The notes: generated by a model from the letters alone, not told the origin. Counted from the first letter of the stretch, positions 1 to 19,616 are shown. The stretch: DNA of 50,560 bases from an uncultured Candidatus Peribacteria bacterium (GCA_964526005.1 CAZGKO010000006.1:1-50560), one strand, 5' to 3'. Numbers and translations: made by a program.

Positions 1-684
1 ACAAAAATCAGCTTTTTTAAGAAAATCTAAAATTTTATCTTTCTTATTCCCATCCTTTTTAAATAACCCCATTGTATATCCACGGTAATTTCCACTATCA
101 GGACCACTTATAACATTTATATTTTTAAATCCTTCAACTATCTGTATAGCAAGCTCATTGTTCCATTGTGAAGCAGCTGATAAAAACAAAACTTCTTTTC
201 TTGTCTTTATTTCAGCAACATCTTTACTAATTTTAAAATCAGCATAAACTTTAATATTTTGCTTTTTTCTTGTTAAGTATTGTTTTTCTTTACCAGAGGC
301 CCAAACTTCAAATAAATTTTCTGTATCAATTTCATTTTTCAAAATAGAAAAGTTATATTTAAATATTTTTTTACCCATTGAAAAAACAACTTTGAAAAAG
401 ACAGGCTTGCCTTTTTCGGAAGATAATGCAAATGGCTGATATGGTAAAATTGCCCCCTCAGAATTGTTGGCAGAATTGATTACACCATTTCGTAATAAGA
501 TGAAAGCTTGTAATATTGTACTTTTTCCCGAAGCATTTGGTCCATAAATTAAAGATGTTTTGAGTAGATTTTCTCCATTACTATCAAAAGTATGTTCGCT
601 TTTTCGTGCAAACATAGAAAAAACAACTCTCTTTTTAAAGATTTTAAAATTTTCTACCGAAAATTCAATAATTGATATTCTCAT
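1..684 (-). CDS. AAA_21/ABC-like ATPase, N-terminal 228 codons only (gene runs off the left edge)
   Basis: This ORF is absent from the supplied track because it has no in-window stop. My reverse-strand translation from the ATG at 684..682 stays open to base 1: MRISIIEFSVENFKIF...SLIYGPNASGKSTILQAFILLRNG...LFLSAASQWNNELA. The Walker A motif is GPNASGKST. It lies on the same strand as res, 136 nt downstream of it. Confidence 0.7.
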   Translation of the reverse strand, partial: MRISIIEFSVENFKIFKKRVVFSMFARKSEHTFDSNGENLLKTSLIYGPNASGKSTILQAFILLRNGVINSANNSEGAILPYQPFALSSEKGKPVFFKVVFSMGKKIFKYNFSILKNEIDTENLFEVWASGKEKQYLTRKKQNIKVYADFKISKDVAEIKTRKEVLFLSAASQWNNELAIQIVEGFKNINVISGPDSGNYRGYTMGLFKKDGNKKDKILDFLKKADFC

Positions 685-708
685 AATTTTGTAAATTATT
701 TACTCAAA

Positions 709-735
709 TACACTATAAGTATATATTATAGTGTA
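709..735. promoter_or_regulatory. Perfect 9-bp inverted repeat (TACACTATA-N9-TATAGTGTA) between res and the AAA ATPase gene
   Basis: Read directly from the sequence, with a TATAAT-like sequence on the minus strand inside it. It could be an operator or a weak terminator. Function unknown. Confidence 0.3.
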
Positions 736-820
736 AAATAATGCGAGCTTCTGTAAAAAAATTACAAAACATCTTTTAAATCTTATTTACAACCTTTCTT
801 TTCAATTTTGTTCATTATAA

Positions 821-3496
821 TTATTTACTAAAATTAGTCATCAATTCTGCAAAACTTTTTGGTGTATATTTATCCCATTGTTCTTGTTTTACATAAAGCA
901 TTTTGTATTCAATCTTTTTTTGTCTTTCATTTGCATCTTTGCACCACTGCTCCAATCTCTTTATTTTTTCTATATCATTCAAATCTTCTCTTCCTTTTGT
1001 CTCCACAATATAAATTGTTTTATTGTCTGTTTTAACAAAGAAATCAGGGTAGTAACTTGATATTGCTCCGCTCGCATTTTTGTAATCAATTTTGAAATGA
1101 ATTTCAAAATAGTTTTTTGCAAAAGAAAGCACATCATCAGCACTTTCCAAAAAATCTGCAAATTCCAATTCAAAATCACTATCTCCAACAATTTTATTGA
1201 AAACGCTCTTTTTTGGTAGCAAATATTTTTTATCAGTAACAACAAAAGGTCTGGCACTACTTACTTTTATATAATTTTTTATTTCAGTATCGCCAACATC
1301 TTGTACAGTCAAATCATTTATTTCTTTTTTGAAAGTTTCTACAATAGTTTTTACAGCTTCCAATTCTGATAAATTCCTCAAAATATTTGAGTCACTAAGA
1401 TCAATATTTTCTTTAAACAACTCATTTGTTATAAATTTTTTAACTTTTCCAAAAAGAATATCGTAACAACCAAAAAGGCGTAATTCTTTCATTATTCTTT
1501 GCACAAAAAACCCAACAACACTTTGGTAATTTGGTTCAATGGAACTATTCAAAATCGTTCTGTGATGTTCTTTATCTTCTACAATTTCTTTAAAAACAAT
1601 TTCCTTTTTCTCTTCCTCTGTAAATTGCTTTATATCAATTTTGTCATTTTTAAATTCAGAAATATTCAGCAAGTTAAGATTTTTGTATTCTCTTTGTATT
1701 CTTGGAGTTAAAATTGGTAATTCAATGTCCAAATTTTCAATATCTTTTTTTATATTTTGATTATCAATTTCAATAACTGTTGGTGTAATAGGAGAACCAG
1801 AACGATCCATTCTTCTTTTTTCTAATTCAACACCTTCCGCTTTAATAGACTCTACAAACTCCATAAAAGCAGGTGTACCGATAACGCTCACATATTCTTC
1901 AACATCTTGCCCAAAAAACATTCGGCGAAGTCCTCGCCCCAATGTTTGCTCGGGTAATACTTTAGAATCTGAACTATAAGGTCGCAAACCGACAATTGTT
2001 GTTACATTTTTCACATCCCAACCTTCCTTAAGCATCATCACAGATACAATTACTTTGTACGGACTTTCTGGGTTATCAATTTCATTTGCCTTTTTTCGCA
2101 GATCTTGCAATTCCTTTTCTTTTTTACCTGTTACTGTTTCAGAAATCTCCCCACTTTTGTTTGTGTGAATAGTCAAGACTGCTCCTTTCAATTGCGGATA
2201 GCTTTTTTCTAAAAATTCTGCAACATCATCACAATTTTTCGTATCGTCTGTCATTATAAAAAGAATTGACTTCTTGCCAGTCGGTTCAAGTCCTTTATAA
2301 GTTTTTCCCCACTCTTCAACTCCAAGTCTGATAAAATCTTCGTATTTTTCAGCAAATAAGGAACTTTGTTTTTCTTGTAATTTCCCTCTACTGGCTTCAT
2401 CTGGTACAACTGGATTTTTTACAACTCCCTGATGTATTGCTTCAACCAATGGATAGTCAGAAACAGTCTGTATAAAAATTTCTCCGCGATTATTTTTTGG
2501 TGTAGCGGTAACATCGATTTGCAAAGATAATTTTTTACCTTTTTGCAATAATTTATTATGTATATCTTCAATAGATTTAAACCATGCCATTTTCGGATCA
2601 TGAATGTGATGTGCTTCATCATTAATAATCATTAATTCATCAACATTACGCACTATTTCCCCTAAATCAACTTTTGAATCATTAGTTTTACCAACAACTT
2701 TGCTTCCCATAAAATAATCGGAAGTGTCTTTGTCTTCAAAACTTGCAATCTTCACATCTCCTTCATAAACTCGGTGGATATTTGTAAGAAAAATATTTCC
2801 CGATTTTGAAATTGTTCCAACATCATCTTGCAAATGTAATTTAATTTGAAAATCATCTTCCCAATTTTGTCCTTCATATCCGTTGTCCGGCAAAATCGGA
2901 TCTTCATAAAATATCTTTAATCCCTCAAAATCAGATTTTATTCTGTCTAAAACAATAATGTTTGGCGTGATGAGTAAAAAGTTTTTTGAGAGTTCAGAAT
3001 TTTTCTCATAAAGCTTGTGGAAATATGACCAGGCCAAAAGCAAACTCATCACTTTTGTTTTTCCACTTCCTGTTGCCATTTTTATCACAAGACGAAGCCA
3101 ATCTTCCGTAAACATGTTTGGACTGACTCTACCCAATTTATCAAATTTGATTAAATCATATTTGTTTGTTGCTTTATCAACATCATAAATCCAAATGATT
3201 GTTTCTACAGCTTCTCTTTGTGCATAATAATATTGAAAAGCGACACTTGTTCCATCACTGCCAAAAATAGTATGCGGTTCTTTGAACCACCAATTTAGCA
3301 ACGCTTTTGATGTTTCGCTTGCGTCACCGTAATTATTTTCTCGCCATTTTGCTACTTTTTCACGCAACTCAGGAACAAAAGGTGGCAAGAGCTTTTCATA
3401 CCCCTCTTTTCGCAAATCTTCCTCAGCAGGAAACCACCTAATCGCAGGATCAAGTATTTTAAATTTATCTTTTGGAAAATTTTTGTGTAGTGCCAT
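821..3496 (-). CDS. res: Type III restriction enzyme, Res subunit (SF2 helicase plus C-terminal PD-(D/E)XK nuclease)
   Basis: 891 aa. Contains Walker A MATGSGKTKV, DEAH box INDEAHHIH, helicase motif VI QTLGRGLRR, and the C-terminal nuclease motif YYPDFFVKTDNKTIYIVETKGRED. Shares an operon with a Type III Mod. Confidence 0.9.
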   Translation of the reverse strand: MALHKNFPKDKFKILDPAIRWFPAEEDLRKEGYEKLLPPFVPELREKVAKWRENNYGDASETSKALLNWWFKEPHTIFGSDGTSVAFQYYYAQREAVETIIWIYDVDKATNKYDLIKFDKLGRVSPNMFTEDWLRLVIKMATGSGKTKVMSLLLAWSYFHKLYEKNSELSKNFLLITPNIIVLDRIKSDFEGLKIFYEDPILPDNGYEGQNWEDDFQIKLHLQDDVGTISKSGNIFLTNIHRVYEGDVKIASFEDKDTSDYFMGSKVVGKTNDSKVDLGEIVRNVDELMIINDEAHHIHDPKMAWFKSIEDIHNKLLQKGKKLSLQIDVTATPKNNRGEIFIQTVSDYPLVEAIHQGVVKNPVVPDEASRGKLQEKQSSLFAEKYEDFIRLGVEEWGKTYKGLEPTGKKSILFIMTDDTKNCDDVAEFLEKSYPQLKGAVLTIHTNKSGEISETVTGKKEKELQDLRKKANEIDNPESPYKVIVSVMMLKEGWDVKNVTTIVGLRPYSSDSKVLPEQTLGRGLRRMFFGQDVEEYVSVIGTPAFMEFVESIKAEGVELEKRRMDRSGSPITPTVIEIDNQNIKKDIENLDIELPILTPRIQREYKNLNLLNISEFKNDKIDIKQFTEEEKKEIVFKEIVEDKEHHRTILNSSIEPNYQSVVGFFVQRIMKELRLFGCYDILFGKVKKFITNELFKENIDLSDSNILRNLSELEAVKTIVETFKKEINDLTVQDVGDTEIKNYIKVSSARPFVVTDKKYLLPKKSVFNKIVGDSDFELEFADFLESADDVLSFAKNYFEIHFKIDYKNASGAISSYYPDFFVKTDNKTIYIVETKGREDLNDIEKIKRLEQWCKDANERQKKIEYKMLYVKQEQWDKYTPKSFAELMTNFSK

Positions 3497-3511
3497 GTTA
3501 TTTTAGTTAAT

Positions 3512-3587
3512 ATGCAAAGAGAATAGTCAATTTAGTGCTTTTATAAACGGTTTTAATTCTCTTTGCATTAGCTTTTGTAAAGAGAAT
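3512..3587. promoter_or_regulatory. Three copies of the motif (G/T)(C/T)AAAGAGAAT in the gap upstream of res, two of them forming a 13-bp perfect inverted repeat
   Basis: ATGCAAAGAGAAT at 3512..3524, its exact reverse complement ATTCTCTTTGCAT at 3556..3568, and GTAAAGAGAAT at 3577..3587. All lie in the 100-nt gap between the AlbA_2-like gene stop and the res start. Confidence 0.4.
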
Positions 3588-3596
3588 ATATTGAGA

Positions 3597-5027
3597 TTAA
3601 ACATTTTTTATCTCATTAATATCTGCTAATTTATACCTTGTGTCTTTTGGATTTTTAGATTCCGGTTCAATTTTTAGCAATAAGCCTTTTTCTACCCATT
3701 TTCTAAACATTCGAGACATTTTATGAGTTTGAACAACATTTGTAATATCTCTCGCTGTTTTGTTATCAATGTATTTCCTTTCTTCTAAATATTTCTTAAT
3801 TTTTTGCCATTCGGTTGGTTGCTCCTCATTAAGAAAGACAACTTTTACAGAATCTTCATACATTGGGTAAGTAAAAAAAATTGGTTGATATAAATTATAT
3901 TTCTTCATTTCTTCTCTCATTGCTCGAACACCCTCGTTCAAATTCAGATTTGGTGGTTCTGGAAATTCCCTTAAGTGCTTAACTAACAAATTATTTCTTT
4001 CTCCATCAGAACGAACATAGCCAATATTTGATTTTGTTATATTGTACGGAAACAACCCAGGACTTAAAATTTCTAACCTATCCTCATAAATTCTTATTTC
4101 TATATCTCTTTTCAAATGATAATCTCTGTGAATAATTGCATTTGTGATGGCTTCTTTAACAGCCCTCTCTGGTATTTTATATATATTTACAAAACCAGAA
4201 CGAACGACTACACCCGATTTTAAAATGTTAAGTACATATTCTTGACTATTTTTTATTAAATCAATCACTGGACCACCAATAGTCTTTGGGTTGCCTAGAT
4301 AATTTGGAGCTTCTCCAAATTTTTCAATTACACCCCTTAATTGAATAACTCTTACTGAACATTTCGTGTCTAGTAAATCTGTAAGAAATTGAGCAAACAA
4401 CAATACTGATGCTCTGGTTGGTTTTAGCTGTTCGTCATCATCTTTCCTTGCTAGTCCTGTTTGAAATAAGATATCTTTTATATCACCATCAGCAATTTTT
4501 CTATTCTTTCTCCAATCGTCAAAATAGTTTGTTTGTAAAAGTTCAAAATCAATATCAACGAGTTCTTTGTCTGCTTTTACAAAACCTTTTGCATAATTAA
4601 ATTTTACAACTTCTTGTGGGGTCAATCTTTTATTACTTTTGTGTAGACGAATCCATACTTGATTATCAATTGCGTAAAAACATTCTGTAGCTTTTGATAT
4701 TCGAAGTATTGCTGCAGTTTTATTTTTTGATATTTCTATAAGCTCTGGTTGTAAATTAGAAACTGGAGGAATTATATTTTTAATTTTATGAAAAATCTCA
4801 TCAAATAATTCTTTATTTTCTTCAATACCAAAAATTCTATCCACACCTTTTAGCTTAGTTTTTTCAGGATCATCAATGCCCAAAAATATATGCCCGCCAT
4901 CAGTATTTGCCATTGCTACTATGGTCTGAATGATTTTTTTCACAATCTTATTACCTTCAAGTCTTTTAAACTCAATTGTTTGTGTCTCTTCTGGAATGTT
5001 CAATATTGTTTCAATAAATTTATTCAT
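3597..5027 (-). CDS. AlbA_2 (Schlafen-core) plus HATPase_c_4-like plus C-terminal wHTH protein (COG2865-type predicted ATP-binding protein/regulator)
   Basis: 476 aa. N-terminal signature ETQTIEFKRLEG...IVAMANTDGGHIFLGIDD. C-terminal signature ERAVKEAITNAIIHRDYHLKRDIEIRIYEDRLEILSPG. The basic tail has a helix-turn-helix-like segment. The start codon lies 6 nt after the mod stop. Confidence 0.75.
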   Translation of the reverse strand: MNKFIETILNIPEETQTIEFKRLEGNKIVKKIIQTIVAMANTDGGHIFLGIDDPEKTKLKGVDRIFGIEENKELFDEIFHKIKNIIPPVSNLQPELIEISKNKTAAILRISKATECFYAIDNQVWIRLHKSNKRLTPQEVVKFNYAKGFVKADKELVDIDFELLQTNYFDDWRKNRKIADGDIKDILFQTGLARKDDDEQLKPTRASVLLFAQFLTDLLDTKCSVRVIQLRGVIEKFGEAPNYLGNPKTIGGPVIDLIKNSQEYVLNILKSGVVVRSGFVNIYKIPERAVKEAITNAIIHRDYHLKRDIEIRIYEDRLEILSPGLFPYNITKSNIGYVRSDGERNNLLVKHLREFPEPPNLNLNEGVRAMREEMKKYNLYQPIFFTYPMYEDSVKVVFLNEEQPTEWQKIKKYLEERKYIDNKTARDITNVVQTHKMSRMFRKWVEKGLLLKIEPESKNPKDTRYKLADINEIKNV

Positions 5028-5033
5028 AATAAT

Positions 5034-7235
5034 TTATACATTAATTTCAATAACCTTGGTCGTGTCATTACCAAAAATATCAATTACTTTAATCGCTACT
5101 TGCATTTTACCTTTTCCTGTAACTTTAAAAGCAGAAGTGAGTTCAAGCGTTCTATCTTTTTTAATTCGGAAACTTTGCCATTCATTTTCAAAAATATAAT
5201 TGCCTGTCCAACCATCGTTTTCTTCGCCAGTTTTTTCATCAATCATTCGCACAATTTCTTTCTTGCTCTCATAATCAAAATCTACTGACCAATAATCAAT
5301 CCAGTCTGTCCACTTTTTTGTCAAAACTTCTTTTTCAATAATCTCTGTTTTTTTATCTTTAGAAATTTTAATCACTTGTCCGTTTTCAATTACAATCTTG
5401 CTTCCACCAGCGCGCAACTTTTCTTCCACCTCGCCAGTATTGTCTTGATTATAGAAAACTGAAAAATCAGTCAGCTCAATTGCAACTTCTTTGGCATTTG
5501 CTCGTCCACGGATAATCGGCTTGGCTTCAATGTATGCCACATCATAAAACCTAACCTGTCCTTTTTCTACCGCTTTTTTATCAAACACCTCTCGCGGAAT
5601 AACTCTAAACTGCACATTCAACCCTTGCTTTTTTGCCTGTTCAAAGTCTAGCCCCATTTCATAATCAAATCCCAAAATATCCGCTTTGGTAACACTTTTT
5701 TCTTTGCACTCAGCAATGACTTTTTCCAAAAAGTCATTGGTAACAGGCATATCAATAGAGCCAACCGCAACCAGTCTGTCTCTCTTTTTACCCACAAACA
5801 TATTAAAAGAATCTACTGGCTCGGCTTTATAGGCAGAAAGAATAAGTGAAACAAACTCTTTTTCTTTTCTCTCTCGTTGTTTTCTTTTTTCTTCTTCTCG
5901 CAAGTTTTCATTCACTTTTAGAAAATCCGCTCGCTCGTATTTTCCGATATTCAAAATCTCAAAAGCTCTGAAATCTTTTTCAGACTTTTTCATTTCTCGT
6001 TGCACACCAATCATTCTTTTGCGAGTGGTGTGAATTGAAAATTTCCCTAAATCAGAACCAATCCATTTTCTGCTCAACTTTTCCGCTACCGCCAAAGTCG
6101 TCCCCGACCCACAGAAAAAGTCAGCAATAAGATCATCTTTGTTTGATGATGCTTTTACTATCCTTTCTAATAAGGTTTCTGGTTTCTGCGTATCGTATCC
6201 TAATCTTTCGTCTCCCATAGCGTTTATCATATTTATATCATCCCAAATATTTTCTACAGGTCTTCCTTTTAACTCATGCGTATATTGTTTAAATTCTGGA
6301 TATTTTGCTCCTTCTGAAAATCTTACCTTATCTTCAGCTTTTAATTTTTCTAGCCGATCTTTTGAATAGGTTGCCATTACTTGCCATCTATATTTACCAT
6401 TTTTATCTTCATATTTAAATCTATCTAGATATTCTTTAGGATATTCACCATATTGAAGATTAAATAAATAATTATTTTTTGATTTTACATATAACAATAT
6501 AGTATCCGTGTTAATCGAAAACTTTTGAGATATGGCTTTTACAGTATTTGTTCGTCTACGCCACAAAATCTCATTCAAAAAATTATTCTTTCCAAAAATT
6601 TCATCCAACACCAACCGCATATAACTGTTCACTCGCCAATCACAATGCACATAAATACTGCCGTCATCCGCCAAAAGTCCGTGCATTAATTTTAGTCGCT
6701 CATAAATCATCGCAATGAAGCTATCCGCACCTTTGCCCCAAGTATCACGATAAGCAATCTCTTCAATCACAGATGGTTTTTTGGTAAAACTTTCTTTTTC
6801 ATCTCCTTCGCCGATTTCTATGTTCATAGAAAAGTCAGCGCCGACATCAAACGGCGGATCAATATAAATTAGTTTCAAGCCGCCTTCGGCTTCAATTTGC
6901 TTTCGCAAAGGTCCATTTTTGAGACTTGATAAAATCAATTTATTATCTCCCCAAATAAGTTTGTTTGACCAGCCTTTTATCTGTCTGCCCGAAGTATCAA
7001 AAAGAGACTCTTGCGAATTGATTTTGTCTTCACTTCTCGGCTCGTCAATATGTTCAATAGTTTGAAAAGGCAAAACAGTATTTTCCACCTCATCAGTCTT
7101 TCCATTCCAAAGCAACTCAACTTCTTTGTCAGTATCAAAAAGCAAAAAACGATATTTCTCTGGCAACGGCTTGCCAGATTCTAGATATTTTATAACATCT
7201 CTCTTTTCGTTATCTGTTAGATTAAGTTTATTCAT
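5034..7235 (-). CDS. mod: Type III R-M DNA methyltransferase, Mod subunit (beta-class N6-adenine MTase)
   Basis: 733 aa. The catalytic motif IV DPPF (LIYIDPPFDVGADF) precedes the SAM motif I (IADFFCGSGTTLAVAEKL), with a long variable region between them. This is the order typical of Type III Mod proteins. Confidence 0.9.
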   Translation of the reverse strand: MNKLNLTDNEKRDVIKYLESGKPLPEKYRFLLFDTDKEVELLWNGKTDEVENTVLPFQTIEHIDEPRSEDKINSQESLFDTSGRQIKGWSNKLIWGDNKLILSSLKNGPLRKQIEAEGGLKLIYIDPPFDVGADFSMNIEIGEGDEKESFTKKPSVIEEIAYRDTWGKGADSFIAMIYERLKLMHGLLADDGSIYVHCDWRVNSYMRLVLDEIFGKNNFLNEILWRRRTNTVKAISQKFSINTDTILLYVKSKNNYLFNLQYGEYPKEYLDRFKYEDKNGKYRWQVMATYSKDRLEKLKAEDKVRFSEGAKYPEFKQYTHELKGRPVENIWDDINMINAMGDERLGYDTQKPETLLERIVKASSNKDDLIADFFCGSGTTLAVAEKLSRKWIGSDLGKFSIHTTRKRMIGVQREMKKSEKDFRAFEILNIGKYERADFLKVNENLREEEKRKQRERKEKEFVSLILSAYKAEPVDSFNMFVGKKRDRLVAVGSIDMPVTNDFLEKVIAECKEKSVTKADILGFDYEMGLDFEQAKKQGLNVQFRVIPREVFDKKAVEKGQVRFYDVAYIEAKPIIRGRANAKEVAIELTDFSVFYNQDNTGEVEEKLRAGGSKIVIENGQVIKISKDKKTEIIEKEVLTKKWTDWIDYWSVDFDYESKKEIVRMIDEKTGEENDGWTGNYIFENEWQSFRIKKDRTLELTSAFKVTGKGKMQVAIKVIDIFGNDTTKVIEINV

Positions 7236-7384
7236 AATAATTATTTCTGTATTAAACCATCAACACCAACTTCAAGAACTTTCGCAATCGTGGAAAGTGT
7301 ATCACAATAGTTGGATTTTGGTGCGTGCGAGTTCTCCGTCGCTTTCGCGAGCACAAAACTTCCAAAAATGCTGAAATTGTAAAT

Positions 7385-7474
7385 TGGCGGAGAGAGAGGG
7401 ATTCGAACCCCCGAGGAGCTTGCACCCCTAACGGTTTTCAAGACCGCCGCGTTCGACCACTCTGCCATCTCTCC
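7385..7474 (-). tRNA. tRNA-Ser (anticodon UGA), long variable arm, CCA encoded
   Basis: The reverse complement reads GGAGAGATGGCAGAGTGGTCGAACGCGGCGGTCTTGAAAACCGTTAGGGGTGCAAGCTCCTCGGGGGTTCGAATCCCTCTCTCTCCGCCA. It has a 7-bp acceptor stem, anticodon loop CTTGAAA and T-loop GGTTCGAATCC. Length 90 nt. Confidence 0.9.
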
Positions 7475-7625
7475 ATTGGGTCTAAAGCCTCCCGATTTTA
7501 AACAAAAACCAACCTCCATGCAAGTTATATTTATTCAGAACTTTTTAAGTAGTAATTTAATCTTCACTTAATTTAATTTTAATTTTTCCCCTTAAAAGGA
7601 ACAGTGTCTTTTAAAATTTACCTGA

Positions 7626-7979
7626 ATGAAAACATTAACACCAGTTCGACCTCCATCCTCACAAAATTTTCAAGAAGATAAATTTTGGTACTTTCAAAAT
7701 TTTATCATCAACTCTTCTAGTCACGAAATTATTACTAAAAATCAAATTATCATCCGACTTCGCAAGAAAGAATTTGAATTACTGCAATGTCTCTATTTCA
7801 ATCCTAATCGTTTAATTAATAAACAGGAATTATTAGAATTAGTATGGAATTATGATTTATATATAAATACCAATACCCTTGAAGTACATCTCTGTAAATT
7901 AAGAAATAAATTAAAAAAAGCCGGTCACAAAAATTTAATTGAAACTATTCACGGAGCCGGCTATCGTTTTAATTTCTAA
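7626..7979 (+). CDS. Stand-alone OmpR/PhoB-type winged-helix DNA-binding protein (no receiver domain)
   Basis: 117 aa. Contains RLRKKEFELLQCLYFNPNRLINKQELLELVW...NTLEVHLCKLRNKL...IETIHGAGYRF, which matches the Trans_reg_C pattern. Confidence 0.7.
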   Translation: MKTLTPVRPPSSQNFQEDKFWYFQNFIINSSSHEIITKNQIIIRLRKKEFELLQCLYFNPNRLINKQELLELVWNYDLYINTNTLEVHLCKLRNKLKKAGHKNLIETIHGAGYRFNF

Positions 7980-7999
7980 ATTATATAATCACTTACAAT

Positions 8000-9208
8000 C
8001 TATAGTTTAAAATATGCTACTGCCGCATCCATTTGAGCATCTTTACCATTTTTTAAATCTTTTATAGTATCTTCTATTTTAATATCTGGTTTTAAACCGA
8101 TATGATTAATATTTTTATTATCTGGTGTATACCATTTGGCAATTGTAAAACGTAATGAAGAACCATCAGATAAAGGATCAACTTCTTGCACAGAACCTTT
8201 TCCATAAGAAGTTACCCCCATCAAAACTCCTCGCTTCAAATCGTGAACAGCCGCCGCCACTATTTCTGCTGCTGATGCGGAACCTTTATTAATCAAAACC
8301 ACCATTGGTACATTTCCCAAAATGGTTTTACCATCGGTTTTCAGTATTTCATTTTTACTGGAATCTCGGTATTTTACACTTGTAACGGTTTTTTCCCCAT
8401 TAATGATTGAAGATAAAACTTCCACCGCTCCTTCCAGATAACCCCCTCCATTATATCGTAAATCCAAAATTAATCCTTTTGGATGTTTTAATTTAATTGC
8501 ATTTAATGCTTTATCAAACCCTATTTTCGTATCATCGGAAAACTGATTAATTGTTACCGCCCAAATTCCTGATCCCATATCTTTGCTTTCTACAGATGAA
8601 ACGGTAATTGTATCTCTGGTTATTTTAATGTCAAAAGGCTTAAGAGTCCCTTTTCTAATTATTGTCAAAGTTACGGTTGTACCTTTTTTACCACGAATTT
8701 TATTAATTGCATCATATAATGAATTATTGTCAACAGCCTGTCCATCAATTTTCTCAATAATATCATTGGGCATTATTCCCGCTGCTTTTGCTGGAGAACC
8801 GTTTAAGGTATTTATAACTACCAATGCTCCATCCTTCACTGTCATCTCTGCTCCAATTCCATCAAGTTTTGAATTTAAACTTTCATTAAAATCTTTAGCT
8901 TCGGTGGGATCCATATAAACCGTATATGGATCATTCAAAGATTCAACCAATCCTCTTGCTGCACCAAAAGACATTTTTTTAGTGGTAATTTCAGACTGTT
9001 CATAATATTGCTGCAGTAAAATTTTTTCTACTTTACTTAAATCTGTTAAGTCCAAATTTTGACTTTTACCAGTTACTCCAGAAAGTATAGAAGTGGCATT
9101 AGTTACTGAATTTAATTGAGTGGGTCCTGAATAAAATATACCTCGAACTATCCAACCTCCCCAGAAAACCAAAGCAAAAAGTAATAAGTAACTGATTTTT
9201 CTATTCAT
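8000..9208 (-). CDS. ctp: Carboxy-terminal processing protease, peptidase S41 with PDZ domain
   Basis: 402 aa. N-terminal membrane anchor, PDZ segment GIGAEMTVKDGALVVINTLNGSPAKAAGIMPNDIIEKIDG, and catalytic region LINKGSASAAEIVAAAV...YGKGSVQ. Confidence 0.85.
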   Translation of the reverse strand: MNRKISYLLLFALVFWGGWIVRGIFYSGPTQLNSVTNATSILSGVTGKSQNLDLTDLSKVEKILLQQYYEQSEITTKKMSFGAARGLVESLNDPYTVYMDPTEAKDFNESLNSKLDGIGAEMTVKDGALVVINTLNGSPAKAAGIMPNDIIEKIDGQAVDNNSLYDAINKIRGKKGTTVTLTIIRKGTLKPFDIKITRDTITVSSVESKDMGSGIWAVTINQFSDDTKIGFDKALNAIKLKHPKGLILDLRYNGGGYLEGAVEVLSSIINGEKTVTSVKYRDSSKNEILKTDGKTILGNVPMVVLINKGSASAAEIVAAAVHDLKRGVLMGVTSYGKGSVQEVDPLSDGSSLRFTIAKWYTPDNKNINHIGLKPDIKIEDTIKDLKNGKDAQMDAAVAYFKL

Positions 9209-9209
9209 C

Positions 9210-10067
9210 TTAATTATTATTTATTTTTTGAATACGCTTGATAGAAAGAGCATAACCAGTTTTATCATCAACTTCAATCAAAACCGCTTGAAAAATCCAT
9301 GGTTCGGGAGCCACATCATGTTTAATCGGCACTCCCATTAATTGATGTTTAACAATAATATGTGGACTGATACCAATCACTGAATTCATCGGACCATTCA
9401 ATCCTACATCGCTTAAATATGCTGTCCCCTGCGGAAAAATCTGTTCATCGGCTGTTTGCACATGGGTATGTGTACCAATTACAGCACTTACTTTCCCATC
9501 CATAAAATATCCAAAAGCTAATTTTTCACCAGTCGCTTCTCCATGAATATCAATAAATACCGCATCATAACCTGCTTTTTTAATCCCAATCACATTATCA
9601 TTTTTACTATATGTATCTGGATCAGATTCTTTTTTTAAAATACCGCGCTTAATTAAAATCTTTTCAACACTACGAAATGGATCATTCACTATTCCCGGCA
9701 TAAATAATTGTCCACTAACATTGATTATCAAAATTTTCCGTTCATCTTTTAAAACCGCTACTCCATCACCGTGTCCAGGAGCATCATCTAAATAATTTAA
9801 GGGTCTAAGTAATAGAGTATCTTTTTTATTTAAGTAGGGATAAATATCTTTATCTTTCCAAATATGATTTCCAGAAGTAAAAAAATCTACTCCAGCTTTT
9901 TTCATCTCTTCTAATTTATTTGGAGAAACTCCTTTACCATGATTAATATTTTCAATATTGGCAATAACCAAATCCAGTTTTCTTTTTTTTCTTAAATCAG
10001 GTAATAGCGTCTTCACCGCATTTCTTCCAGGCTTTCCAAATACGTCACCGATAAATAATATTTTCAT
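9210..10067 (-). CDS. ymdB: YmdB-family metallophosphoesterase (2',3'-cyclic-nucleotide phosphodiesterase family)
   Basis: 285 aa. Contains MKILFIGDVFGKPGRNAV...NIENINHGKG...TSGNHIW...DIHGEATGEK...GTHTHVQTAD, typical of the TIGR00282-type family. Confidence 0.8.
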   Translation of the reverse strand: MKILFIGDVFGKPGRNAVKTLLPDLRKKRKLDLVIANIENINHGKGVSPNKLEEMKKAGVDFFTSGNHIWKDKDIYPYLNKKDTLLLRPLNYLDDAPGHGDGVAVLKDERKILIINVSGQLFMPGIVNDPFRSVEKILIKRGILKKESDPDTYSKNDNVIGIKKAGYDAVFIDIHGEATGEKLAFGYFMDGKVSAVIGTHTHVQTADEQIFPQGTAYLSDVGLNGPMNSVIGISPHIIVKHQLMGVPIKHDVAPEPWIFQAVLIEVDDKTGYALSIKRIQKINNN

Positions 10068-10238
10068 AATTTCACTTTATTATTCTTGATATAAGGTTAT
10101 TCCTAATACATATCAACCGATACATTACAATATGAAAGAATTTATCTTATTCGCTTAATTTCAGCAAATTTTTATTTTGATTTTATTTTCTTTTGCTAAA
10201 ACCAAACTATATCTCGCGGATATGTATATTGAAGATAT

Positions 10239-10267
10239 TTGACGGTGAGTATTTACTCACCTATTAT
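10239..10267 (+). promoter_or_regulatory. Near-consensus sigma70-type promoter of recA (TTGACG-17-TATTAT) whose spacer is filled by an 18-bp palindrome
   Basis: -35 TTGACG at 10239..10244 and -10 TATTAT at 10262..10267. The palindrome GGTGAGTA-TT-TACTCACC spans 10244..10261 (8-bp perfect arms). The promoter ends about 40 nt upstream of the recA ATG. Confidence 0.5.
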
Positions 10268-10305
10268 CTCAGTAAGCTTAAAAATAATTTAACAATATCA
10301 AATTT

Positions 10306-11424
10306 ATGGCTACACAAAGCGACAAACAGAAAGCGATTGAATTAGCTCTCGATCAAATTGAAAGGGCTTTTGGAAAGGGGTCTATCATGCGTATGGGTGA
10401 ATCTCAAGGAATTCAAGTGGCAACTTTTCCTTCTGGCGCACTTTCTTTAGATTTAGCCATGGGGGGCGGTGTTCCTCGGGGTAGAATTGTGGAAGTTTAT
10501 GGACCGGAAAGTTCCGGAAAAACCACCCTCACTTTGCACATGATTAGTGAAGTTCAAAAGACTGGGGGAATGGCAGGTTTCATCGACGCAGAACATGCAC
10601 TTGATCCAGAATATGCCAAAAAAATCGGTGTTGATTTAAATAATCTATTAATTTCTCAACCGGATTCTGGTGAACAAGCTTTAGAAATTACTGAAACTTT
10701 AGTTCGCTCTAATGCTCTTGATCTAATTGTGATTGACTCAGTTGCCGCATTAACTCCCAAGGCTGAAATAGAAGGAGAAATGGGAGATGCCCACATGGGT
10801 TTACAAGCTCGATTAATGAGTCAAGCTCTCCGTAAATTAACTGCCGCAATTAGTAAATCCAAAACTACTGTTCTTTTCATTAACCAATTACGCATCAAAA
10901 TTGGTGTTATGTTCGGTAATCCTGAAACTACTACCGGTGGAAATGCCCTTAAATTTTATTCTTCCGTACGTATGGAAATTCGTTCCATTGCTAAATTAGA
11001 AGGAGGAAATGGTGAAGAAAAGAAATATATTGGTCATCGTGTGAGAGTAAAAATTGTTAAAAATAAAGTGGCTCCACCATTTCAAATTGCCGAGTTTGAT
11101 ATTCTTTATAATACTGGAATCTGTCGTATTGGTGATCTCCTTGATTTGGCGGTTAAATATGAAATAGTTAAAAAGGCCGGTGCATTCTATAGTTATAAAG
11201 ATTTAAGAATCGGTCAGGGTCGGGAGAATGTAAAAACTTTTCTAAAAACTAAAGAGAATAAAAAATTAGCAGAAGAAATGGAAAAAGATGTACTCAATTA
11301 TATTAATAAATTAAAATCATCTCAATTGACTACTGAACAAACTGAAACTAAAACAGCAGCTGCCCCGATCAAAAGCAGTACTGCTTCTAAAGTATCCCCT
11401 CGCCAGACTGTTGTTAAGAAGTAA
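10306..11424 (+). CDS. recA: Recombinase RecA
   Basis: 372 aa. Contains [30 protein letters not shown] and [28 protein letters not shown]. Confidence 0.97.
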
Positions 11425-11447
11425 ATTACTAATTAATCAAGCTTTCT

Positions 11448-11475
11448 ATCCCCTCGTATAGACGGGGGGATTTTA
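11448..11475 (+). terminator. Probable rho-independent terminator after recA
   Basis: A GC-rich hairpin, ATCCCCTCGTATAGACGGGGGGAT, followed by TTTTATT. Confidence 0.55.
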
Positions 11476-11501
11476 TTACCAAATTTTAAATTATTTCTTG
11501 C

Positions 11502-11981
11502 ATGTCACCAACTCAAAAAAAACTACTGGAATATTGTTATTATTTATTAGGTCGTTGCCGATATACTACGATGGAGATTCATCGTAAAATAAAAAGAAAA
11601 AATACTGCATATATTGAACCCGCCACCACTGACCAACTTAAAGAAATTATTGATTATTTACTTCAAAAAAATTATCTCAATGATCAAGAATATATTTCTT
11701 TATATTTAGAAGGTCCAGCTCAAAGAAAATCTCTTGGTCCCAATCGTATTAAGGCTGAATTATCCCGTAAAGGATTACAATTTGATCTAGTTAAACAACA
11801 ATTAACTTTAAATAATTATCAAGAGATTTTACATGCGGAAAATTTTCTCGCTAAAAAATATCCTCAACAAAATTTCCAGACACTTGACCAAAAAACTCGT
11901 TCTAAAATTTTCCGCCAACTCTATTCACGCGGTTTTACTACATCTACTATTTCTCAACTCCTTAATTATATTGAACGATAA
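11502..11981 (+). CDS. recX: RecX-like regulatory protein
   Basis: 159 aa. Lies immediately downstream of recA and has repeated helical RecX-like segments (LNDQEYISLYLEG...GPNRIKAELSRKGL...SKIFRQLYSRGF). Confidence 0.7.
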   Translation: MSPTQKKLLEYCYYLLGRCRYTTMEIHRKIKRKNTAYIEPATTDQLKEIIDYLLQKNYLNDQEYISLYLEGPAQRKSLGPNRIKAELSRKGLQFDLVKQQLTLNNYQEILHAENFLAKKYPQQNFQTLDQKTRSKIFRQLYSRGFTTSTISQLLNYIER

Positions 11982-12218
11982 ATCAAATATTCAACTATGA
12001 ACTAAACAAAATCATTCACCTTGCACTTCAACCCCGAATCTATTTTAAGAACCTTATATTCCTTTGTGTAAATAATCTCTTCCTATCTTATGCCATATTT
12101 CAACCTCATGTTCAAGATAAGCAAGCTTGGCATCAAAATTCTTTACTTTTTTTACTTTTTCATTTACATTGATAATGTAAAGAAATCTTAAAGTTTAAGA
12201 TTTCGACTTTTCTATAAC

Positions 12219-13478
12219 TTGCAAAACATGCAATCACAATTCTTAGCTGCTATCAATCAAATCTGTGATGAAAAAAATATTCCCAAAGAGCAGGTTTTGG
12301 AAACTGTTAGGGCAGCCCTGCGAGCTGCTTACCGTAAAGATTATGGGAATAAAGACCAGAATATTGAGGTGGAAATGGAAGATGAAAAAGAACAATTTAC
12401 AGTTTATCTGGTTAAAGAAATCGTCAAAAAAGTAGAAGATGCTGAAACCCAAATCGCACTAAAAGATGCTTTAAAATATAGAAAAGATGCTAAAGTCGGT
12501 GGTGTCATTAAAATTGATGTAACTCCTTTGGAATATGGACGTATTGCTGCGCAATCCGCTAAACAAGTAATTATTCAAAAAATTCAGGAAGCAGAAAGGG
12601 AAGTAATGTATGAAAATTTTAAAGATCGTGAAAATGAATTAGTAAATGCTTTAGTTCAAAGAGTAGAAAATGGGACGGTCTATGTTAATTTAGATAATAA
12701 ATTAACAACTATTCTTTCACATGAACATCAAATTCCTCGTGAAAAATATTATGCTGGACAGAGATTAAAACTTTATCTCGATAAAGTAATTAAAACTACC
12801 CGTGGTCCTCAACTAATTATTTCTCGTTCTATGCCTAATTTAGTTATTAAACTGATGGAATTAGAAATTCCAGAAATTAAAAGCGGTTTAGTGGAAATTA
12901 AAACCGTTGCTCGCGAACCTGGAGTACGTGCAAAAATCGCCGTGATTTCCAATGATCCTAAAATTGATCCAATTGGATCTTGTGTAGGTCAGAAAGGTGT
13001 GCGTGTTCAAAATGTTATGGATGAATTAAATGGCGAAAGGATAGATGTAATCGCATGGTCTGAAGATTTAACTAAATATATTAAAACTGCTTTGGCTCCG
13101 GCAAAAGTTGTCAGCATTGATATTGACGAAAATCAAAGAAGAGCCAAAATTTATGTTAATCCCGATCAAAGACCTTTAGCAATCGGTAAAAATGGGCAAA
13201 ATGTTCGCCTGGCTTCCAAACTTATTGGATATGAATTAGATATCCTAGATGTTGGAGATAAAATATCGGCAGCTGAGGCTGAAAAGGGACCTAAAATTGA
13301 AAATATTAAGGATATTACTGCTTTTTCACCTGAACTCATCAAAAAATTAGAAGATGCCAATTTTACCATGGTTTCTCAATTACACGGACTTGGTGTGGGA
13401 GATCTTACTGCAATTGAAGAAATTTCTGAAGAAGAAGCTAATTTAATTGCAGAGGAAGTTCAAAAAGCAGAAGCATAA
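12219..13478 (+). CDS. nusA: Transcription termination/antitermination factor NusA
   Basis: 419 aa with N-terminal, S1 and two KH domains (GPQLIISRSMPNLVIKLMELEIPEI...VAREPGVRAKIAV...GSCVGQKGVRVQNV). The TTG at 12219 or the ATG at 12228 may be the true start. Confidence 0.93.
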   Translation: MQNMQSQFLAAINQICDEKNIPKEQVLETVRAALRAAYRKDYGNKDQNIEVEMEDEKEQFTVYLVKEIVKKVEDAETQIALKDALKYRKDAKVGGVIKIDVTPLEYGRIAAQSAKQVIIQKIQEAEREVMYENFKDRENELVNALVQRVENGTVYVNLDNKLTTILSHEHQIPREKYYAGQRLKLYLDKVIKTTRGPQLIISRSMPNLVIKLMELEIPEIKSGLVEIKTVAREPGVRAKIAVISNDPKIDPIGSCVGQKGVRVQNVMDELNGERIDVIAWSEDLTKYIKTALAPAKVVSIDIDENQRRAKIYVNPDQRPLAIGKNGQNVRLASKLIGYELDILDVGDKISAAEAEKGPKIENIKDITAFSPELIKKLEDANFTMVSQLHGLGVGDLTAIEEISEEEANLIAEEVQKAEA

Positions 13479-13587
13479 TCCGTAGCACCTTCCCTGCTCT
13501 CTTGTGTTCTTAACCTTTAGTATTTTTCAGACTCAATCTGGAAAATCCAACTTAAAAATGCTATAATATAGGGATTTAAATTTATTT

Positions 13588-15564
13588 ATGTCAGAAAATA
13601 CGCCAAACCAATCAAATCCTTCAAGCCAAATGGCTGGTTCAATAACCCAAAACCAGAATACAATTAATCATTCCCAGAATGCGGAAGGTGTTTTGAAAAA
13701 ATATACTCCAGAACAAAATTCGACCTCAACAGCACAAGGCTCAACAGCACAAGGCTCAACAGCACAAGGCTCAACAGCAGAAAGCTCAACAGCAGAAAGC
13801 TCAACAGCAGAAAGCTCAACAGCAGAAGGCTCAACAGCAGAAAGCTCAACAGCAGAAAGCTCAACAGCAGAAAGCTCCACAGCCCAAAGTTCCAAAAAAA
13901 TAAATGAAGAAAAAATAAAAACTCAATTTGAAGTAATGACAGGGAATTTGGAAAAAATGAAAAGAGAGGCAAAAGAAAAAGATACTCAACAAAAGGCCGC
14001 TCAATTGGGCATGAATTATATTAATATTGCGATTACACCGATTAATCCAGATTTATTAAAAATAATACCTGCAGAAATTGCGGAAACAAATTTAATTTTC
14101 CCATTTTATCGTTTGGGGAAAAAATTAAGAGTTACCATGGCTCACCCTACTAATGCAGGGACATTAATGGTAATTAAAGATTTAAAACAAAAAGGTTATT
14201 CAATTAATAATAATTTTTCTTCTGAAGAGGGGATTAGAGATGCTCTTAAGATTTATCATAGCAGTCAATATCGTCCAGTTAAAAAAATTGCAACTGGACT
14301 AGATGAATCAAAGTTACAAACTTATGAAAAAGAATTGGTGAAATTACAGGATCTCGGTGAAAAAGTGAAAGGGATTACTGCCGAAGAGGCAGTTTATATG
14401 ATTTGTATTGCCGGAGTTAAAGCCGGCGCTTCCGACATTCATTTGGAAGCGGAAGAACATTTTATCAGAGGACGTATACGTATTGATGGAATGCTTCATG
14501 AAGTATTTAAAATTAATCATGAGACATTTGTAAATATTTCCAGTCAAATTAAGTATCAATCTAAAATGCGAATTAATGTGAGTAATGTGCCACAAGATGG
14601 ACGTTTTAATTTCACTGTTAATCAAAGAAAAATTGATGTCAGAGTTTCTGCATTACCCACTGAATTTGGCGAAAGTTTTGTATTTAGACTTTTAGATTCC
14701 AGTCGAAAATTACTTAGTTTTGAAGAATTGGGATTTACTGGATCTTATTTAAATAAAGTAATTAAATTAACTGATCTTTCTCATGGCATGATATTGGTAA
14801 CTGGTCCCACGGGTTCTGGAAAAACCACTACTCTTTATACCATGTTGTCAAAATTCAATAAACCAGAAGTGAAAATTATTACCATGGAAGATCCAATTGA
14901 ATATCATTTGCCCGGAATTAATCAAAGCCAGATTGATGAAAAACACGGTTATGATTTTGCCAGTGGTCTGCGCTCCGTGCTCCGTCAAGATCCTGAAGTA
15001 ATTATGATTGGTGAAATTCGTGATTTGGCAACCGCTGAAACAGCAGCGCAGGCCGCATTGACTGGGCATGTGATGCTTTCCACTTTACATACAAATAGTG
15101 CTATAGAAACTATCCCTCGTCTAATTAATATTGGTTTACCAGCATTTATGATTGCCCCTTCTTTACATACCATTATTGCACAGAGATTGGCTCGGCGCAT
15201 TTGTCCCAATTGTGCTGTTAAAAAACCAGTTCCACAGTCTGAGCGTGATGAAATAGAAAAAGTTTTAACAATGATACGTAAAGTCAGACCTTCGGAGAAA
15301 CATGAAATGCCTGCTGAATTACCACAAATTGTAGGCTGTGATGTATGTAGTCATACTGGTTATAAAGGACAAGTCACTTTATTAGAAATGCTTGAAGTAG
15401 ATTTTGAAATGAAAGATTTAATTTTAAATAAAACTTCTACAACTAAAATGATTGGATCCGCTCGTACTAAAGGGATGATTACCATACGTGAAGATGGAAT
15501 ATTAAAAGTTCTTGCCGGTATCACCACTTTAGAAGAAGTGCATCGCTCCACTAATATTATGTAA
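13588..15564 (+). CDS. pilB: Type IV pilus / type II secretion assembly ATPase (PilB/GspE family) with a low-complexity N-terminal repeat
   Basis: 658 aa. Contains a T2SSE_N-like segment, Walker A VTGPTGSGKTTTLY, Asp box, Walker B IMIGEIRD, His box LSTLHTN, and the tetracysteine motif CPNC...CDVC. Confidence 0.9.
   Translation: MSENTPNQSNPSSQMAGSITQNQNTINHSQNAEGVLKKYTPEQNSTSTAQGSTAQGSTAQGSTAESSTAESSTAESSTAEGSTAESSTAESSTAESSTAQSSKKINEEKIKTQFEVMTGNLEKMKREAKEKDTQQKAAQLGMNYINIAITPINPDLLKIIPAEIAETNLIFPFYRLGKKLRVTMAHPTNAGTLMVIKDLKQKGYSINNNFSSEEGIRDALKIYHSSQYRPVKKIATGLDESKLQTYEKELVKLQDLGEKVKGITAEEAVYMICIAGVKAGASDIHLEAEEHFIRGRIRIDGMLHEVFKINHETFVNISSQIKYQSKMRINVSNVPQDGRFNFTVNQRKIDVRVSALPTEFGESFVFRLLDSSRKLLSFEELGFTGSYLNKVIKLTDLSHGMILVTGPTGSGKTTTLYTMLSKFNKPEVKIITMEDPIEYHLPGINQSQIDEKHGYDFASGLRSVLRQDPEVIMIGEIRDLATAETAAQAALTGHVMLSTLHTNSAIETIPRLINIGLPAFMIAPSLHTIIAQRLARRICPNCAVKKPVPQSERDEIEKVLTMIRKVRPSEKHEMPAELPQIVGCDVCSHTGYKGQVTLLEMLEVDFEMKDLILNKTSTTKMIGSARTKGMITIREDGILKVLAGITTLEEVHRSTNIM
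13726..13890 (+). repeat. 11 tandem copies of a 15-bp unit (TCAACAGCA[C/G]AA[G/A]GC) encoding (STAQG)3(STAES)3(STAEG)(STAES)3(STAQS)
   Basis: Read directly from the sequence. The repeat is in frame inside the pilB N-terminus. Confidence 0.95.
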
Positions 15565-16426: not shown

Positions 16427-16603
16427 CTGAATAAAAAATATTCCAGATCTTTAATCTTACATTTAAAAAAACCTTAACGTTTCAATATATGCGATGTTTT
16501 GCGGAACGCAGTGGAGCAAAATATGGGAGAGCGAAGTGCAATAAAATTGCTCTTTCGCTTGCTTCAGTGAAAAATATTTTTTTAATTAGTTAATTAAAAT
16601 TTA

Positions 16604-16937: not shown

Positions 16938-16939
16938 AT

Positions 16940-17682: not shown

Positions 17683-17868
17683 ATATAGATTATAGCTTGA
17701 ATATAATTTTTAATAAATCGTTTCCGTAGCGAAGCGAAAGAAAACACCTTATTTCTAAAGCGAAGCAGGAAAATTCTTATTATCAAAAAGATAAAAACAT
17801 ATATGTCGTCTAACATTTGTTTATCTTCCTTTTCATAACATTAATAAAGCACATTTTTTATAAAATTT

Positions 17869-18546: not shown

Positions 18547-18607
18547 ATAATTTCTCTAAATTCTTATATAGCATAACATAGTAAAATAAAATTTTCAGAT
18601 TATTTTA

Positions 18608-19549: not shown

Positions 19550-19616
19550 GATAAAATTTAAGAATTGCCATTACTACAAAACGATGATAACTTAAAATAA
19601 CTTAATCGTCACGGAA

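Follow-up and report, generated by a model that had tools for sequence, protein, structure and literature searches.

A Schlafen cassette inside a Type III restriction-modification operon, and an adjoining AbiL module, beside tRNA-Ser(UGA) in a Candidatus Peribacteria contig

The left end of a 50,560-nt stretch of DNA from an uncultured Candidatus Peribacteria bacterium (GCA_964526005.1 CAZGKO010000006.1:1-50560; hereafter the window, in which coordinates are given unless a locus is named) carries four genes on the minus strand, directly 3' of a tRNA-Ser(UGA). From the tRNA outward, they comprise the methyltransferase gene mod of a Type III restriction-modification (R-M) unit, a gene with an AlbA_2/Schlafen domain, the restriction gene res, and an AAA_21-type ATPase gene, all identified from the open reading frame (ORF) list with a manual frame check. 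Comparison with other contigs and genomes (loci L001-L111) revealed that the Schlafen gene belongs to a cassette inserted between mod and res, at a position that is empty in close relatives, and that the ATPase gene is the start of a separate AbiL pair. The features of the region are as follows.

7385-7474, minus strand: tRNA-Ser(UGA) (ARAGORN; Rfam tRNA, 53.9 bits), its 3' end (7385) toward the defence block
7329-7384, unstranded: 56-nt junction between the tRNA and the Type III homology, which runs from about 7328 (blastn and MAFFT against L104)
7241-7303, minus strand: remnant of an Xre-type helix-turn-helix (HTH) gene, last 21 codons (tblastn with the 65-aa L104 ORF, 76% identity over 21 aa)
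5034-7235, minus strand: Type III Mod, 733 aa, beta-class N6-adenine methyltransferase (Pfam, PADLOC, motif order)
3497-5027, minus strand: Schlafen cassette, 1,531 nt, promoter-less, consisting of the ORF and a 100-nt 3' element (empty sites in L104, L105 and L107)
3597-5027, minus strand: 476-aa protein with a Schlafen RNase domain, a GHKL (HATPase_c_4) ATPase domain and a predicted C-terminal winged helix (Pfam, AlphaFold, Foldseek)
3513-3586, minus strand: three-box element, conserved after the Schlafen stop codon in relatives
821-3496, minus strand: Type III Res, 891 aa, superfamily 2 (SF2) helicase with a C-terminal PD-(D/E)xK endonuclease (Pfam, motifs)
748-820, unstranded: junction between the Type III unit and AbiL (blastn and MAFFT against L104, L102 and L092), with Type III homology reaching about 817 and AbiL homology starting at about 760-747
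1-747, minus strand: 5' part of an AbiL cassette, comprising 63 nt of conserved upstream sequence and AbiLi codons 1-228 (684 to 1), with 90% DNA identity to L102 9938-10684

The genes are separated by gaps of 6 nt (5028-5033), 100 nt (3497-3596) and 136 nt (685-820), and the mod start lies 149 nt beyond the 3' end of the tRNA. An earlier reading made from the sequence alone (the sequence-only reading) had described four co-oriented genes with these gaps, starting about 150 nt past the tRNA, and every coordinate was confirmed by the ORF list, the tRNA scan and the frame check; the presence of a defence-gene cluster directly 3' of tRNA-Ser(UGA) is likewise supported. Family assignments were concordant among Pfam, PADLOC and NCBIfam. 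The GC content of the block ranges from 0.26 to 0.35, and its composition is not clearly different from that of the flank.

The insertion of the Schlafen cassette can be read at single-nucleotide resolution. At the empty sites in L104, L105 and L107, the mod stop codon (taa) is followed by 6 nt and the ATG of res, and L104 reads '...taa ATTATT ATGGCACTACAT'. In the junction alignment, the occupied site of the window reads '...taa ATTATT ATG(AATAAA ... 1,531 nt ...)ATGGCACTACAC'. The insert starts where the ATG of res would otherwise stand and ends immediately ahead of the actual one, leaving the order and strand of mod and res intact, with the two genes separated by foreign DNA as opposed to the 6-nt junction of close relatives. 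Given this placement of a promoter-less unit exactly at the res start, with the 6-nt gap kept, the Schlafen gene is probably co-transcribed with mod.

The host operon is otherwise a recognizable Type III unit. Mod was matched by Pfam N6_N4_Mtase (1.6e-44) and PADLOC MTase_III (5.6e-111), and its DPPF motif (residue 126) precedes FCGSG (residue 374), the order of the beta class. Res was matched by Pfam ResIII (1.9e-18), RE_endonuc and TnsA-like N, and by PADLOC REase_III (5.8e-21); helicase motifs I, II, III and VI were located (GSGKT143, DEAH293, TAT330 and QTLGRGLR517), together with a C-terminal PD..ETK nuclease motif (PDFF..IVETKG). In Type III systems, Mod hemimethylates an asymmetric site, and the Res2Mod2 complex uses ATP and cuts DNA with unmodified sites, cleavage requiring two unmethylated sites in inverse orientation. 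The window unit resembles the canonical EcoP15I/EcoPI type in having mod upstream of res, a beta-class Mod, and a Res built of an SF2 helicase and a PD-(D/E)xK nuclease, and its closest relatives show the standard 6-nt mod-res junction; it differs in that the operon is broken by a 1.5-kb foreign cassette and that a small upstream HTH gene is truncated. DNA homology to L104 extends from 7328 to 817, except for the inserted cassette and the centre of Mod (6549-6259). This target-recognition centre (about 6209-6579) is divergent, the homology with L019 and L104 being broken between about 6579/6549 and about 6209/6259. Directly upstream of mod, L104 encodes an intact 65-aa Xre-type HTH protein (Pfam HTH_3, 1.7e-11), a candidate controller (C) protein of these related units. 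The window retains only the last 21 codons of this gene (7303 to 7241), so that the Type III unit breaks off 56 nt short of the tRNA.

Homologues of Res with 77-93% identity fell into more than 120 clusters, from bacteria of the candidate phyla radiation (CPR), a contig labelled Rikenellaceae and Desulfatiglans. The Rikenellaceae-labelled contig (L107-L109) carries the same mod-res pair with 87% Res identity and appears plasmid-like, with Rep3, ParA, a toxin-antitoxin pair, and a Tn3-family transposase and resolvase. Its Res protein is indexed in 106 blocks of the contig collection, suggesting wide dissemination.

The unit running from the Schlafen ATG to the third box of the 3' element (5028 to 3513) was found at 72-78% DNA identity in L001-4, L012 and L005-8. 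In L001-4, hsdR precedes the cassette and a fused hsdM-S follows it; an HTH gene is found upstream of this group and a reverse transcriptase gene downstream. In L005-8 the cassette stands alone. Its occurrence in common across Type I, L012 and stand-alone contexts indicates a portable, promoter-less cassette. In L001 (7263-15295), the Schlafen cassette of the HTH-hsdR-[Schlafen]-hsdM/S-fusion operon is 83% identical, and the RVT_1 gene (463 aa) follows hsdM/S after 3 nt.

The association with Type III genes also recurs over much larger distances. The mod-Schlafen-res trio was observed in L019 (Patescibacteria; protein identities for mod/Schlafen/res of 68/70/85%), L022 (Nitrospirae; 58/56/59%), L085 (Alcaligenaceae; 35/37/31%) and L025 (Sungbacteria; 28/53/24%), and a similar arrangement is present in L014. 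The linkage of the Schlafen gene to mod and res, as the sequence-only reading had supposed, is thus borne out in at least four further loci. In the wider Schlafen family, the first search returned 882 matches, and of 600 pattern-matched stretches in a one-genome-per-species set, 571 proved to be relatives, distributed over many bacterial phyla and one Altiarchaeota-labelled contig. Neighbouring families were tallied as Pfam counts; BLAST clustering of the neighbours was too fragmented. The immediate upstream neighbours (n = 56) included Eco57I (9), ResIII (6), MmeI_Mtase (5), N6_N4_Mtase (4), N6_Mtase (3) and Methylase_S (3), and the downstream neighbours (n = 52) included ResIII (7), N6_Mtase (2) and DUF1156 (2).

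This distribution bears on a rival explanation, according to which no functional link exists: the cassette would be a selfish or opportunistic stand-alone defence gene that lands in R-M operons, these being expressed, tolerated and often transferred, and the three modules would simply share a defence hotspot. The presence of the same cassette in Type I, Type III and stand-alone contexts is in keeping with this account, as is the finding that non-R-M genes account for more than half of the immediate neighbours in the family. The closest res relatives also do without Schlafen, the three closest contexts examined (93%, 89% and 87% identity) being plain mod-6 nt-res operons. However, the insertion is precise and preserves the operon, and the trio is intact across phyla at protein identities of 24-85%, implying long co-inheritance. 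Strong enrichment beside nuclease-based systems has, moreover, been reported independently (PMC13462974, PMC12839542). We consider the absence of any functional link rather unlikely. An integron gene cassette was also considered and rejected, as no RYYYAAC...GTTRRRY cores were read in the 100-nt 3' element and no IntI gene was found in any locus.

Within the protein encoded by the cassette, Pfam detected SLFN_AlbA_2 (1e-15) and HATPase_c_4 (3.8e-12, residues 308-385), and gave no match for the C-terminal winged helix. Residues E14, E19 and D53 align with the catalytic E209, E214 and D252 of SLFN11. The stretch E14-x4-E19-x-K21 represents the Ex4(E/D)xK motif of prokaryotic Schlafens (pSlfns; PMC13056530) and matches E17, D22 and K24 of CbCash (PMC13462974). 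In an alignment of 40 homologues, E14, E19, K21 and D53 are invariant, and E292xxxN296 is conserved in the homologue alignment. The AlphaFold model (predicted local distance difference test, pLDDT, 81.5) matched DIP2311 (3lmm) over its full length in Foldseek (4e-20). Its N-terminal part matched the Schlafen N-domains of SLFN5/11/13/14 (E about 2e-4), and its middle part the histidine-kinase ATP-binding domains of PhoQ, DesK and PDK. Residues 406-467 are modelled as three helices and a beta wing, a predicted winged helix that matched MepR-like (MarR-like), Stf76 and ESCRT-II winged helices with probabilities up to 1.0 and weak E-values (0.02-0.1). Furthermore, the PADLOC pAgo (prokaryotic Argonaute) model matched residues 15-405 (6.9e-24), which correspond to the N-terminal Schlafen-GHKL 'Schlatpase' half of SLFN-pAgo.

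By sequence, the protein belongs to the class described as 'pSlfn-HisKinase-HTH' or 'Schlatpase'. Proteins combining Schlafen, ATPase and HTH domains are among the commonest prokaryotic Schlafens (19%; PMC13056530), and those combining Schlafen, ATPase and DNA-binding domains are tightly associated with R-M, bacteriophage exclusion (BREX) and type I CRISPR systems (PMC13462974). In BREX loci, a Schlafen protein with a minimal histidine kinase and a winged HTH (wHTH) has been called a 'backup suicidal effector' (PMC12839542). In SLFN-pAgo, the GHKL domain is responsible for ATP-dependent tetramerisation and the SLFN domain for tRNA cleavage, and the module is exchanged with R-M systems (bioRxiv 10.64898/2026.05.29.728809). 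A tight linkage of this architecture to R-M, BREX and type I CRISPR has already been reported, and a back-up RNase role proposed for it (bioRxiv 10.64898/2026.05.29.728809, PMC13462974, PMC12839542). The architectures for which cleavage of tRNA or RNA and defence against phages have been demonstrated are other pSlfns only (PMC13056530, PMC13462974). The window protein shares with the published pSlfn HisKinase-HTH proteins the same three domains in the same order, an intact Ex4(E/D)xK motif and a restriction-operon setting. The published accounts treat the association broadly (as a Type I fusion, BREX or an 'R-M cluster'), whereas the host here is a Type III operon, the insertion point is known to the nucleotide, and a three-box 3' element is part of the unit.

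This element lies within the 100 nt that separate the end of the Schlafen gene from the ATG of res. It consists of box 1 TTCTCTTTACA (3586 to 3576), 8 nt, the inverted box 2 TGCAAAGAGAA (3567 to 3557), 33 nt and box 3 TTCTCTTTGCA (3523 to 3513), which ends 16 nt before the res ATG. After the Schlafen gene in L019, L001-4 and L012, the same boxes recur at the same spacings, the spacer sequences having diverged; L005-8 have a degenerate box 2. Subfamilies at 56-59% protein identity have the same layout with other boxes, namely TACTTGTTTTT in L013, TACTTGCA in L014 and TTTTTACAAGA in L016, and the start of the recognition helix and the wing vary between the box groups. In a subfamily at 30-43% identity, the pattern [TC][AGT]TTATC, chosen by eye, was observed at most 110 nt downstream in 23 of 42 loci, versus 4% expected. 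A generic count of direct and inverted repeat pairs in 70 loci separated the two sides weakly (5.6 pairs downstream, 3.9 upstream), and for this reason an element is claimed only within the close subfamily and, for the distant one, with respect to the specific motif.

A hairpin between boxes 2 and 3 was predicted at -16.8 kcal/mol (z = -2.95). As the five-sequence alignment contains 0 compensatory base pairs, no RNA structure is claimed for the element despite this fold. Instead, the element may be recognized in a sequence-specific manner by a protein, for which the winged helix encoded by the cassette itself is the simplest candidate. No mention of it was found in PMC13056530, PMC13462974, PMC12839542 or bioRxiv 10.64898/2026.05.29.728809.

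The exact palindrome TTCTCTTTGCA-N8-TGCAAAGAGAA was also observed in two IMG/VR contigs, L110 (717-746) and L111 (2281-2310), which are reverse complements and apparently represent one phage sampled twice. No Schlafen gene lies near it, and in L111 it is closely followed by a 208-aa ORF and a gene for an N6_N4 DNA methyltransferase. Chance, a terminator and a shared regulatory site are possible readings.

The element is also central to a second rival explanation, in which the Schlafen-GHKL-wHTH protein would be mainly a transcriptional controller of the restriction gene. Replacing the truncated C protein, it would bind the three boxes and delay or tune res or hsdM, with any nuclease activity secondary. 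The position of the element suits such a role, as 11-16 nt separate the end of box 3 from the following start codon in three R-M-embedded contexts, yet the stand-alone L005 keeps the element with no co-oriented gene downstream. Every cassette copy of the close subfamily carries the element, and the upstream HTH controller is truncated in the window, although L019 retains the cassette in an element with a different upstream region. Among subfamilies, the boxes vary in step with the recognition-helix start and the wing, and what is conserved is sequence and not pairing. The older COG2865 annotation of these proteins reads 'predicted transcriptional regulator', but the nuclease triad is invariant across the 40 homologues, which is unexpected for a pure regulator. 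We regard a mainly regulatory role as possible but doubtful.

The fourth gene belongs to a different system. Its start lies at 684 and 228 codons are visible before it runs off the left end, sufficient for a PADLOC AbiLi match of 3.1e-29. The full-length homologue in L102 (408 aa, 93% identical) scored 1.2e-82 for AbiLi and 1.7e-32 for AAA_21, confirming the ABC/AAA_21 assignment, and the next gene in L102 matched RloB (1.2e-44) and AbiLii (1.2e-28). A metagenome scan identified 12 loci with AbiLi proteins of 61-93% identity, all 405-408 aa long; in all 12, an RloB-family protein of about 206 aa (PADLOC AbiLii) is encoded about 5 nt downstream, and none of the 12 contains a mod, res or Schlafen homologue. 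L102 shares 90% DNA identity with window positions 747 to 1, while its housekeeping genes are only about 50% identical, indicating recent transfer of a discrete AbiL cassette with its edge inside the 136-nt gap. We predict that AbiLi continues beyond the left end of the window and is followed there by the RloB/AbiLii gene. AbiL has been grouped with the ABC-ATPase/TOPRIM systems (PMC11464382), and the window gene conforms to this OLD/PARIS/Gabija group in its best PADLOC match (AbiLi), in the RloB/AbiLii partner of all homologous loci and in the two-gene unit with a 5-nt gap. It is read over only 228 codons with the partner gene outside the window, and its related copies come from CPR and metagenomic bacteria, remote from the original AbiL of a lactococcal plasmid.

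The sequence-only reading had taken the four genes as a composite or extended R-M-based module delivered as a classical island integrated at tRNA-Ser. The shared orientation, the short gaps and the position beside the tRNA 3' end suggest such a unity; however, AbiLi is unlinked to mod, res and Schlafen in 12 of 12 loci, and the AbiL DNA homology begins abruptly at 747. The two additional genes therefore part ways: the linkage of Schlafen to mod and res stands, as the trio recurs, with Schlafen being a nested cassette, and the inclusion of the AAA_21 gene in one four-gene system does not.

The island component of the same proposal was addressed through synteny. Beyond the tRNA, the content had been described as switching to ordinary and housekeeping genes, and a wHTH regulator, an S41 protease, YmdB, RecA, RecX and NusA were indeed found, continuing into core metabolism and DNA repair. 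The S41 protease beside the tRNA has its best long-contig relatives, 54-57% identical, in CPR genomes of the Peregrinibacteria/Gracilibacteria type. The gene order NrdR-Xer-ABC-DprA-T2SSE-NusA-x-RecX-RecA-YmdB-S41-wHTH-tRNA-Ser(tga) is kept gene for gene in L009 (93 kb) and L011 (a 1.34-Mb genome), the two nearest long-contig relatives, and the wHTH gene is followed by the same tRNA-Ser in L009, L010 and L011. In all three, the defence block is absent at this tRNA, with 12 genes conserved on one side and the other flank rearranged; these relatives are distant, with about 55% protein identity. The genes found beyond the tRNA in L009 and L011 are small ORFs, a dCMP deaminase, tRNA-Ser(gct), tRNA-Cys and ArgRS, with no defence genes among them. 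The tRNA-Cys/ArgRS segment is located at 37.7-45.5 kb in the window in the opposite relative orientation, which places a synteny break exactly at the 3' side of tRNA-Ser(tga). Relative to L011 and L009, the segment from tRNA-Ser(tga) to at least NrdR (7375-19895) is inverted with respect to the tRNA-Cys/ArgRS segment (37702-45474), and the window lacks the dCMP deaminase and tRNA-Ser(gct) by which the two tRNAs are separated in the relatives.

The absence of the block from relatives agrees with an island, and so does L019, in which a complete integrative element of about 10.4 kb carries the same trio, together with a tRNA-Gly, a tyrosine integrase, a Rep protein gene and a 24-nt repeat of the tRNA 3' end; a second repeat lies 1.1 kb further on. 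The window likewise has mod-Schlafen-res cargo beside a tRNA 3' end but, unlike L019, has no integrase at the tRNA and no att repeat, and the first gene of its cargo is cut 56 nt from the tRNA. No integrase was found between tRNA-Ser and mod, the 149 nt there holding the HTH-gene remnant, and the relatives share the gene for the Xer-like recombinase (18608-19549) as part of their conserved core. Searches with a 25-mer and a 16-mer (at most 3 mismatches) of the tRNA-Ser 3' end revealed no copy anywhere in the window, and a generic repeat scan of 1-8000 gave short repeats at chance level only. The left boundary, as already recognized, lies beyond the window, and a direct repeat marking an island there would be one of GGTTCGAATCCCTCTCTCTCCGCCA. 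The source contig is listed at 55,057 nt, which leaves at most about 4.5 kb outside the window. In addition, the controller gene is cut at the junction, and the inversion of synteny from the tRNA onward points to rearrangement rather than clean site-specific integration. The idea of a tRNA island is thus plausible in general, as L019 shows, and unproven for the window locus; that all four genes form one extended system brought in as a classical tRNA-Ser island appears very unlikely. In L019 (2117-13682), the tRNA is tRNA-Gly(gcc), the replication protein is of the REP_ORF2-G2P family, two small ORFs are present and the 24-nt att repeat lies at 12574; another repeat, of 18 nt at 13665, is suggestive of a tandem remnant, and a tmRNA and tRNA-Leu are located just upstream.

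Taken together, we favour, with a probability of roughly 0.7, the reading that window positions 1-7384 are a mosaic of three independently mobile defence modules (a Type III unit, a Schlafen cassette nested in it and an AbiL pair) stacked at a synteny break 3' of tRNA-Ser(UGA) in a CPR genome resembling Peregrinibacteria/Gracilibacteria, in which the Schlafen protein would serve as a latent back-up effector. The comparisons themselves establish where the modules begin and end, the occupied and empty sites, the recurrence of the trio, the intact catalytic motifs and the conservation of the 3' element. Beyond this, we infer that the protein is an abortive-infection effector, latent until triggered, that would cut tRNA or RNA as a back-up to the restriction enzyme; any cross-talk with Res or Mod is part of the same inference. 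Its GHKL domain may control ATP-dependent oligomerisation, and its winged helix would bind DNA, most likely the three-box element just upstream of res. The AbiL module would act separately from mod and res, with AbiLi as an ABC ATPase sensor and RloB/AbiLii as a TOPRIM-like nuclease.

Several points weigh against this reading. R-M genes make up only about 40% of the immediate neighbours in the family, and some copies stand alone; an R-M partner is therefore not obligatory. HisKinase-fused pSlfns expressed alone gave no protection in Escherichia coli (PMC13056530), and the trigger for this class is not established in PMC13056530, PMC13462974, PMC12839542 or bioRxiv 10.64898/2026.05.29.728809. 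The putative operator role is suggested by position, conservation and subfamily-specific boxes, features that common descent would also give, and the post hoc choice of the pattern in the distant subfamily inflates its p-value. Finally, the nearest relatives used for synteny are only about 55% identical in protein.

The operon logic proposed here has a parallel in PrrC, an anticodon nuclease embedded in the Type Ic R-M locus EcoprrI, and likewise in RloC. PrrC consists of an ABC-ATPase-like N-domain and its own nuclease domain, and its activation by an anti-restriction peptide has been shown. By analogy, the window would also place the gene of a latent tRNA-targeting suicide nuclease inside an R-M operon. 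The Schlafen/GHKL/wHTH protein is, however, unrelated to PrrC, and anti-restriction-peptide activation is only conjectured for it; no PrrC-like family was found among its profile and structure matches, and the likeness is confined to the operon logic.

The locus is a small defence hotspot in which each of the three units is of a known kind, and the Schlafen-in-R-M association was already published in 2026. What is new is that occupied and empty sites are resolved to the nucleotide in a Type III operon, that the cassette is delimited as running from ATG to box 3, and that a conserved three-box element specific to each subfamily is described. The locus and its relatives thereby offer natural occupied and empty sites, a conserved trio and a candidate cis element, making directly testable whether a putative tRNase responds to the restriction enzyme, as PrrC does. 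They also illustrate that short gaps and a shared strand beside a tRNA need not mean one system. As a tentative and rather unlikely extension, the Schlafen gene and its three-box element could form a self-contained 'plug-in' cassette for the junctions of Type I, Type III and perhaps other operons, taking over the upstream region of the next R-M gene, with the winged helix on its own boxes coupling expression or activity of the restriction enzyme to the latent tRNase. If true, this would be a general and portable way of adding an abortive-infection layer to nuclease-based immunity, and the subfamily-specific boxes would be cognate operators.

Additional features were observed at the start codons and in the surroundings of related operons. 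A Shine-Dalgarno-like sequence is missing at all four start codons (5027, 7235, 3496 and 684). The sequence ATTATG occurs at the start codon of mod, the Schlafen gene and AbiLi, and AATTATTATG at those of mod and the Schlafen gene, with AATAACATG at res. The promoter and terminator scan gave nothing informative above shuffle expectation, and the Rfam scan returned no match except the tRNA. After res in L104 (5203-8379) and L105 (4915-9441), a 2-nt gap is followed by a gene for a 1,058-1,061-aa SMC_N/AAA_21-like protein and then by one for a DUF2130 protein; these genes may be another accessory module at the slot held by AbiL in the window. Furthermore, the island of the Schlafen-free Type III operon in L105 (res 89%) encodes, at 9963-14912, a GmrSD_N-Schlafen fusion (708 aa) and a HaeIII-type R-M system, and a different Schlafen architecture is thus present 5 kb from the same res family.

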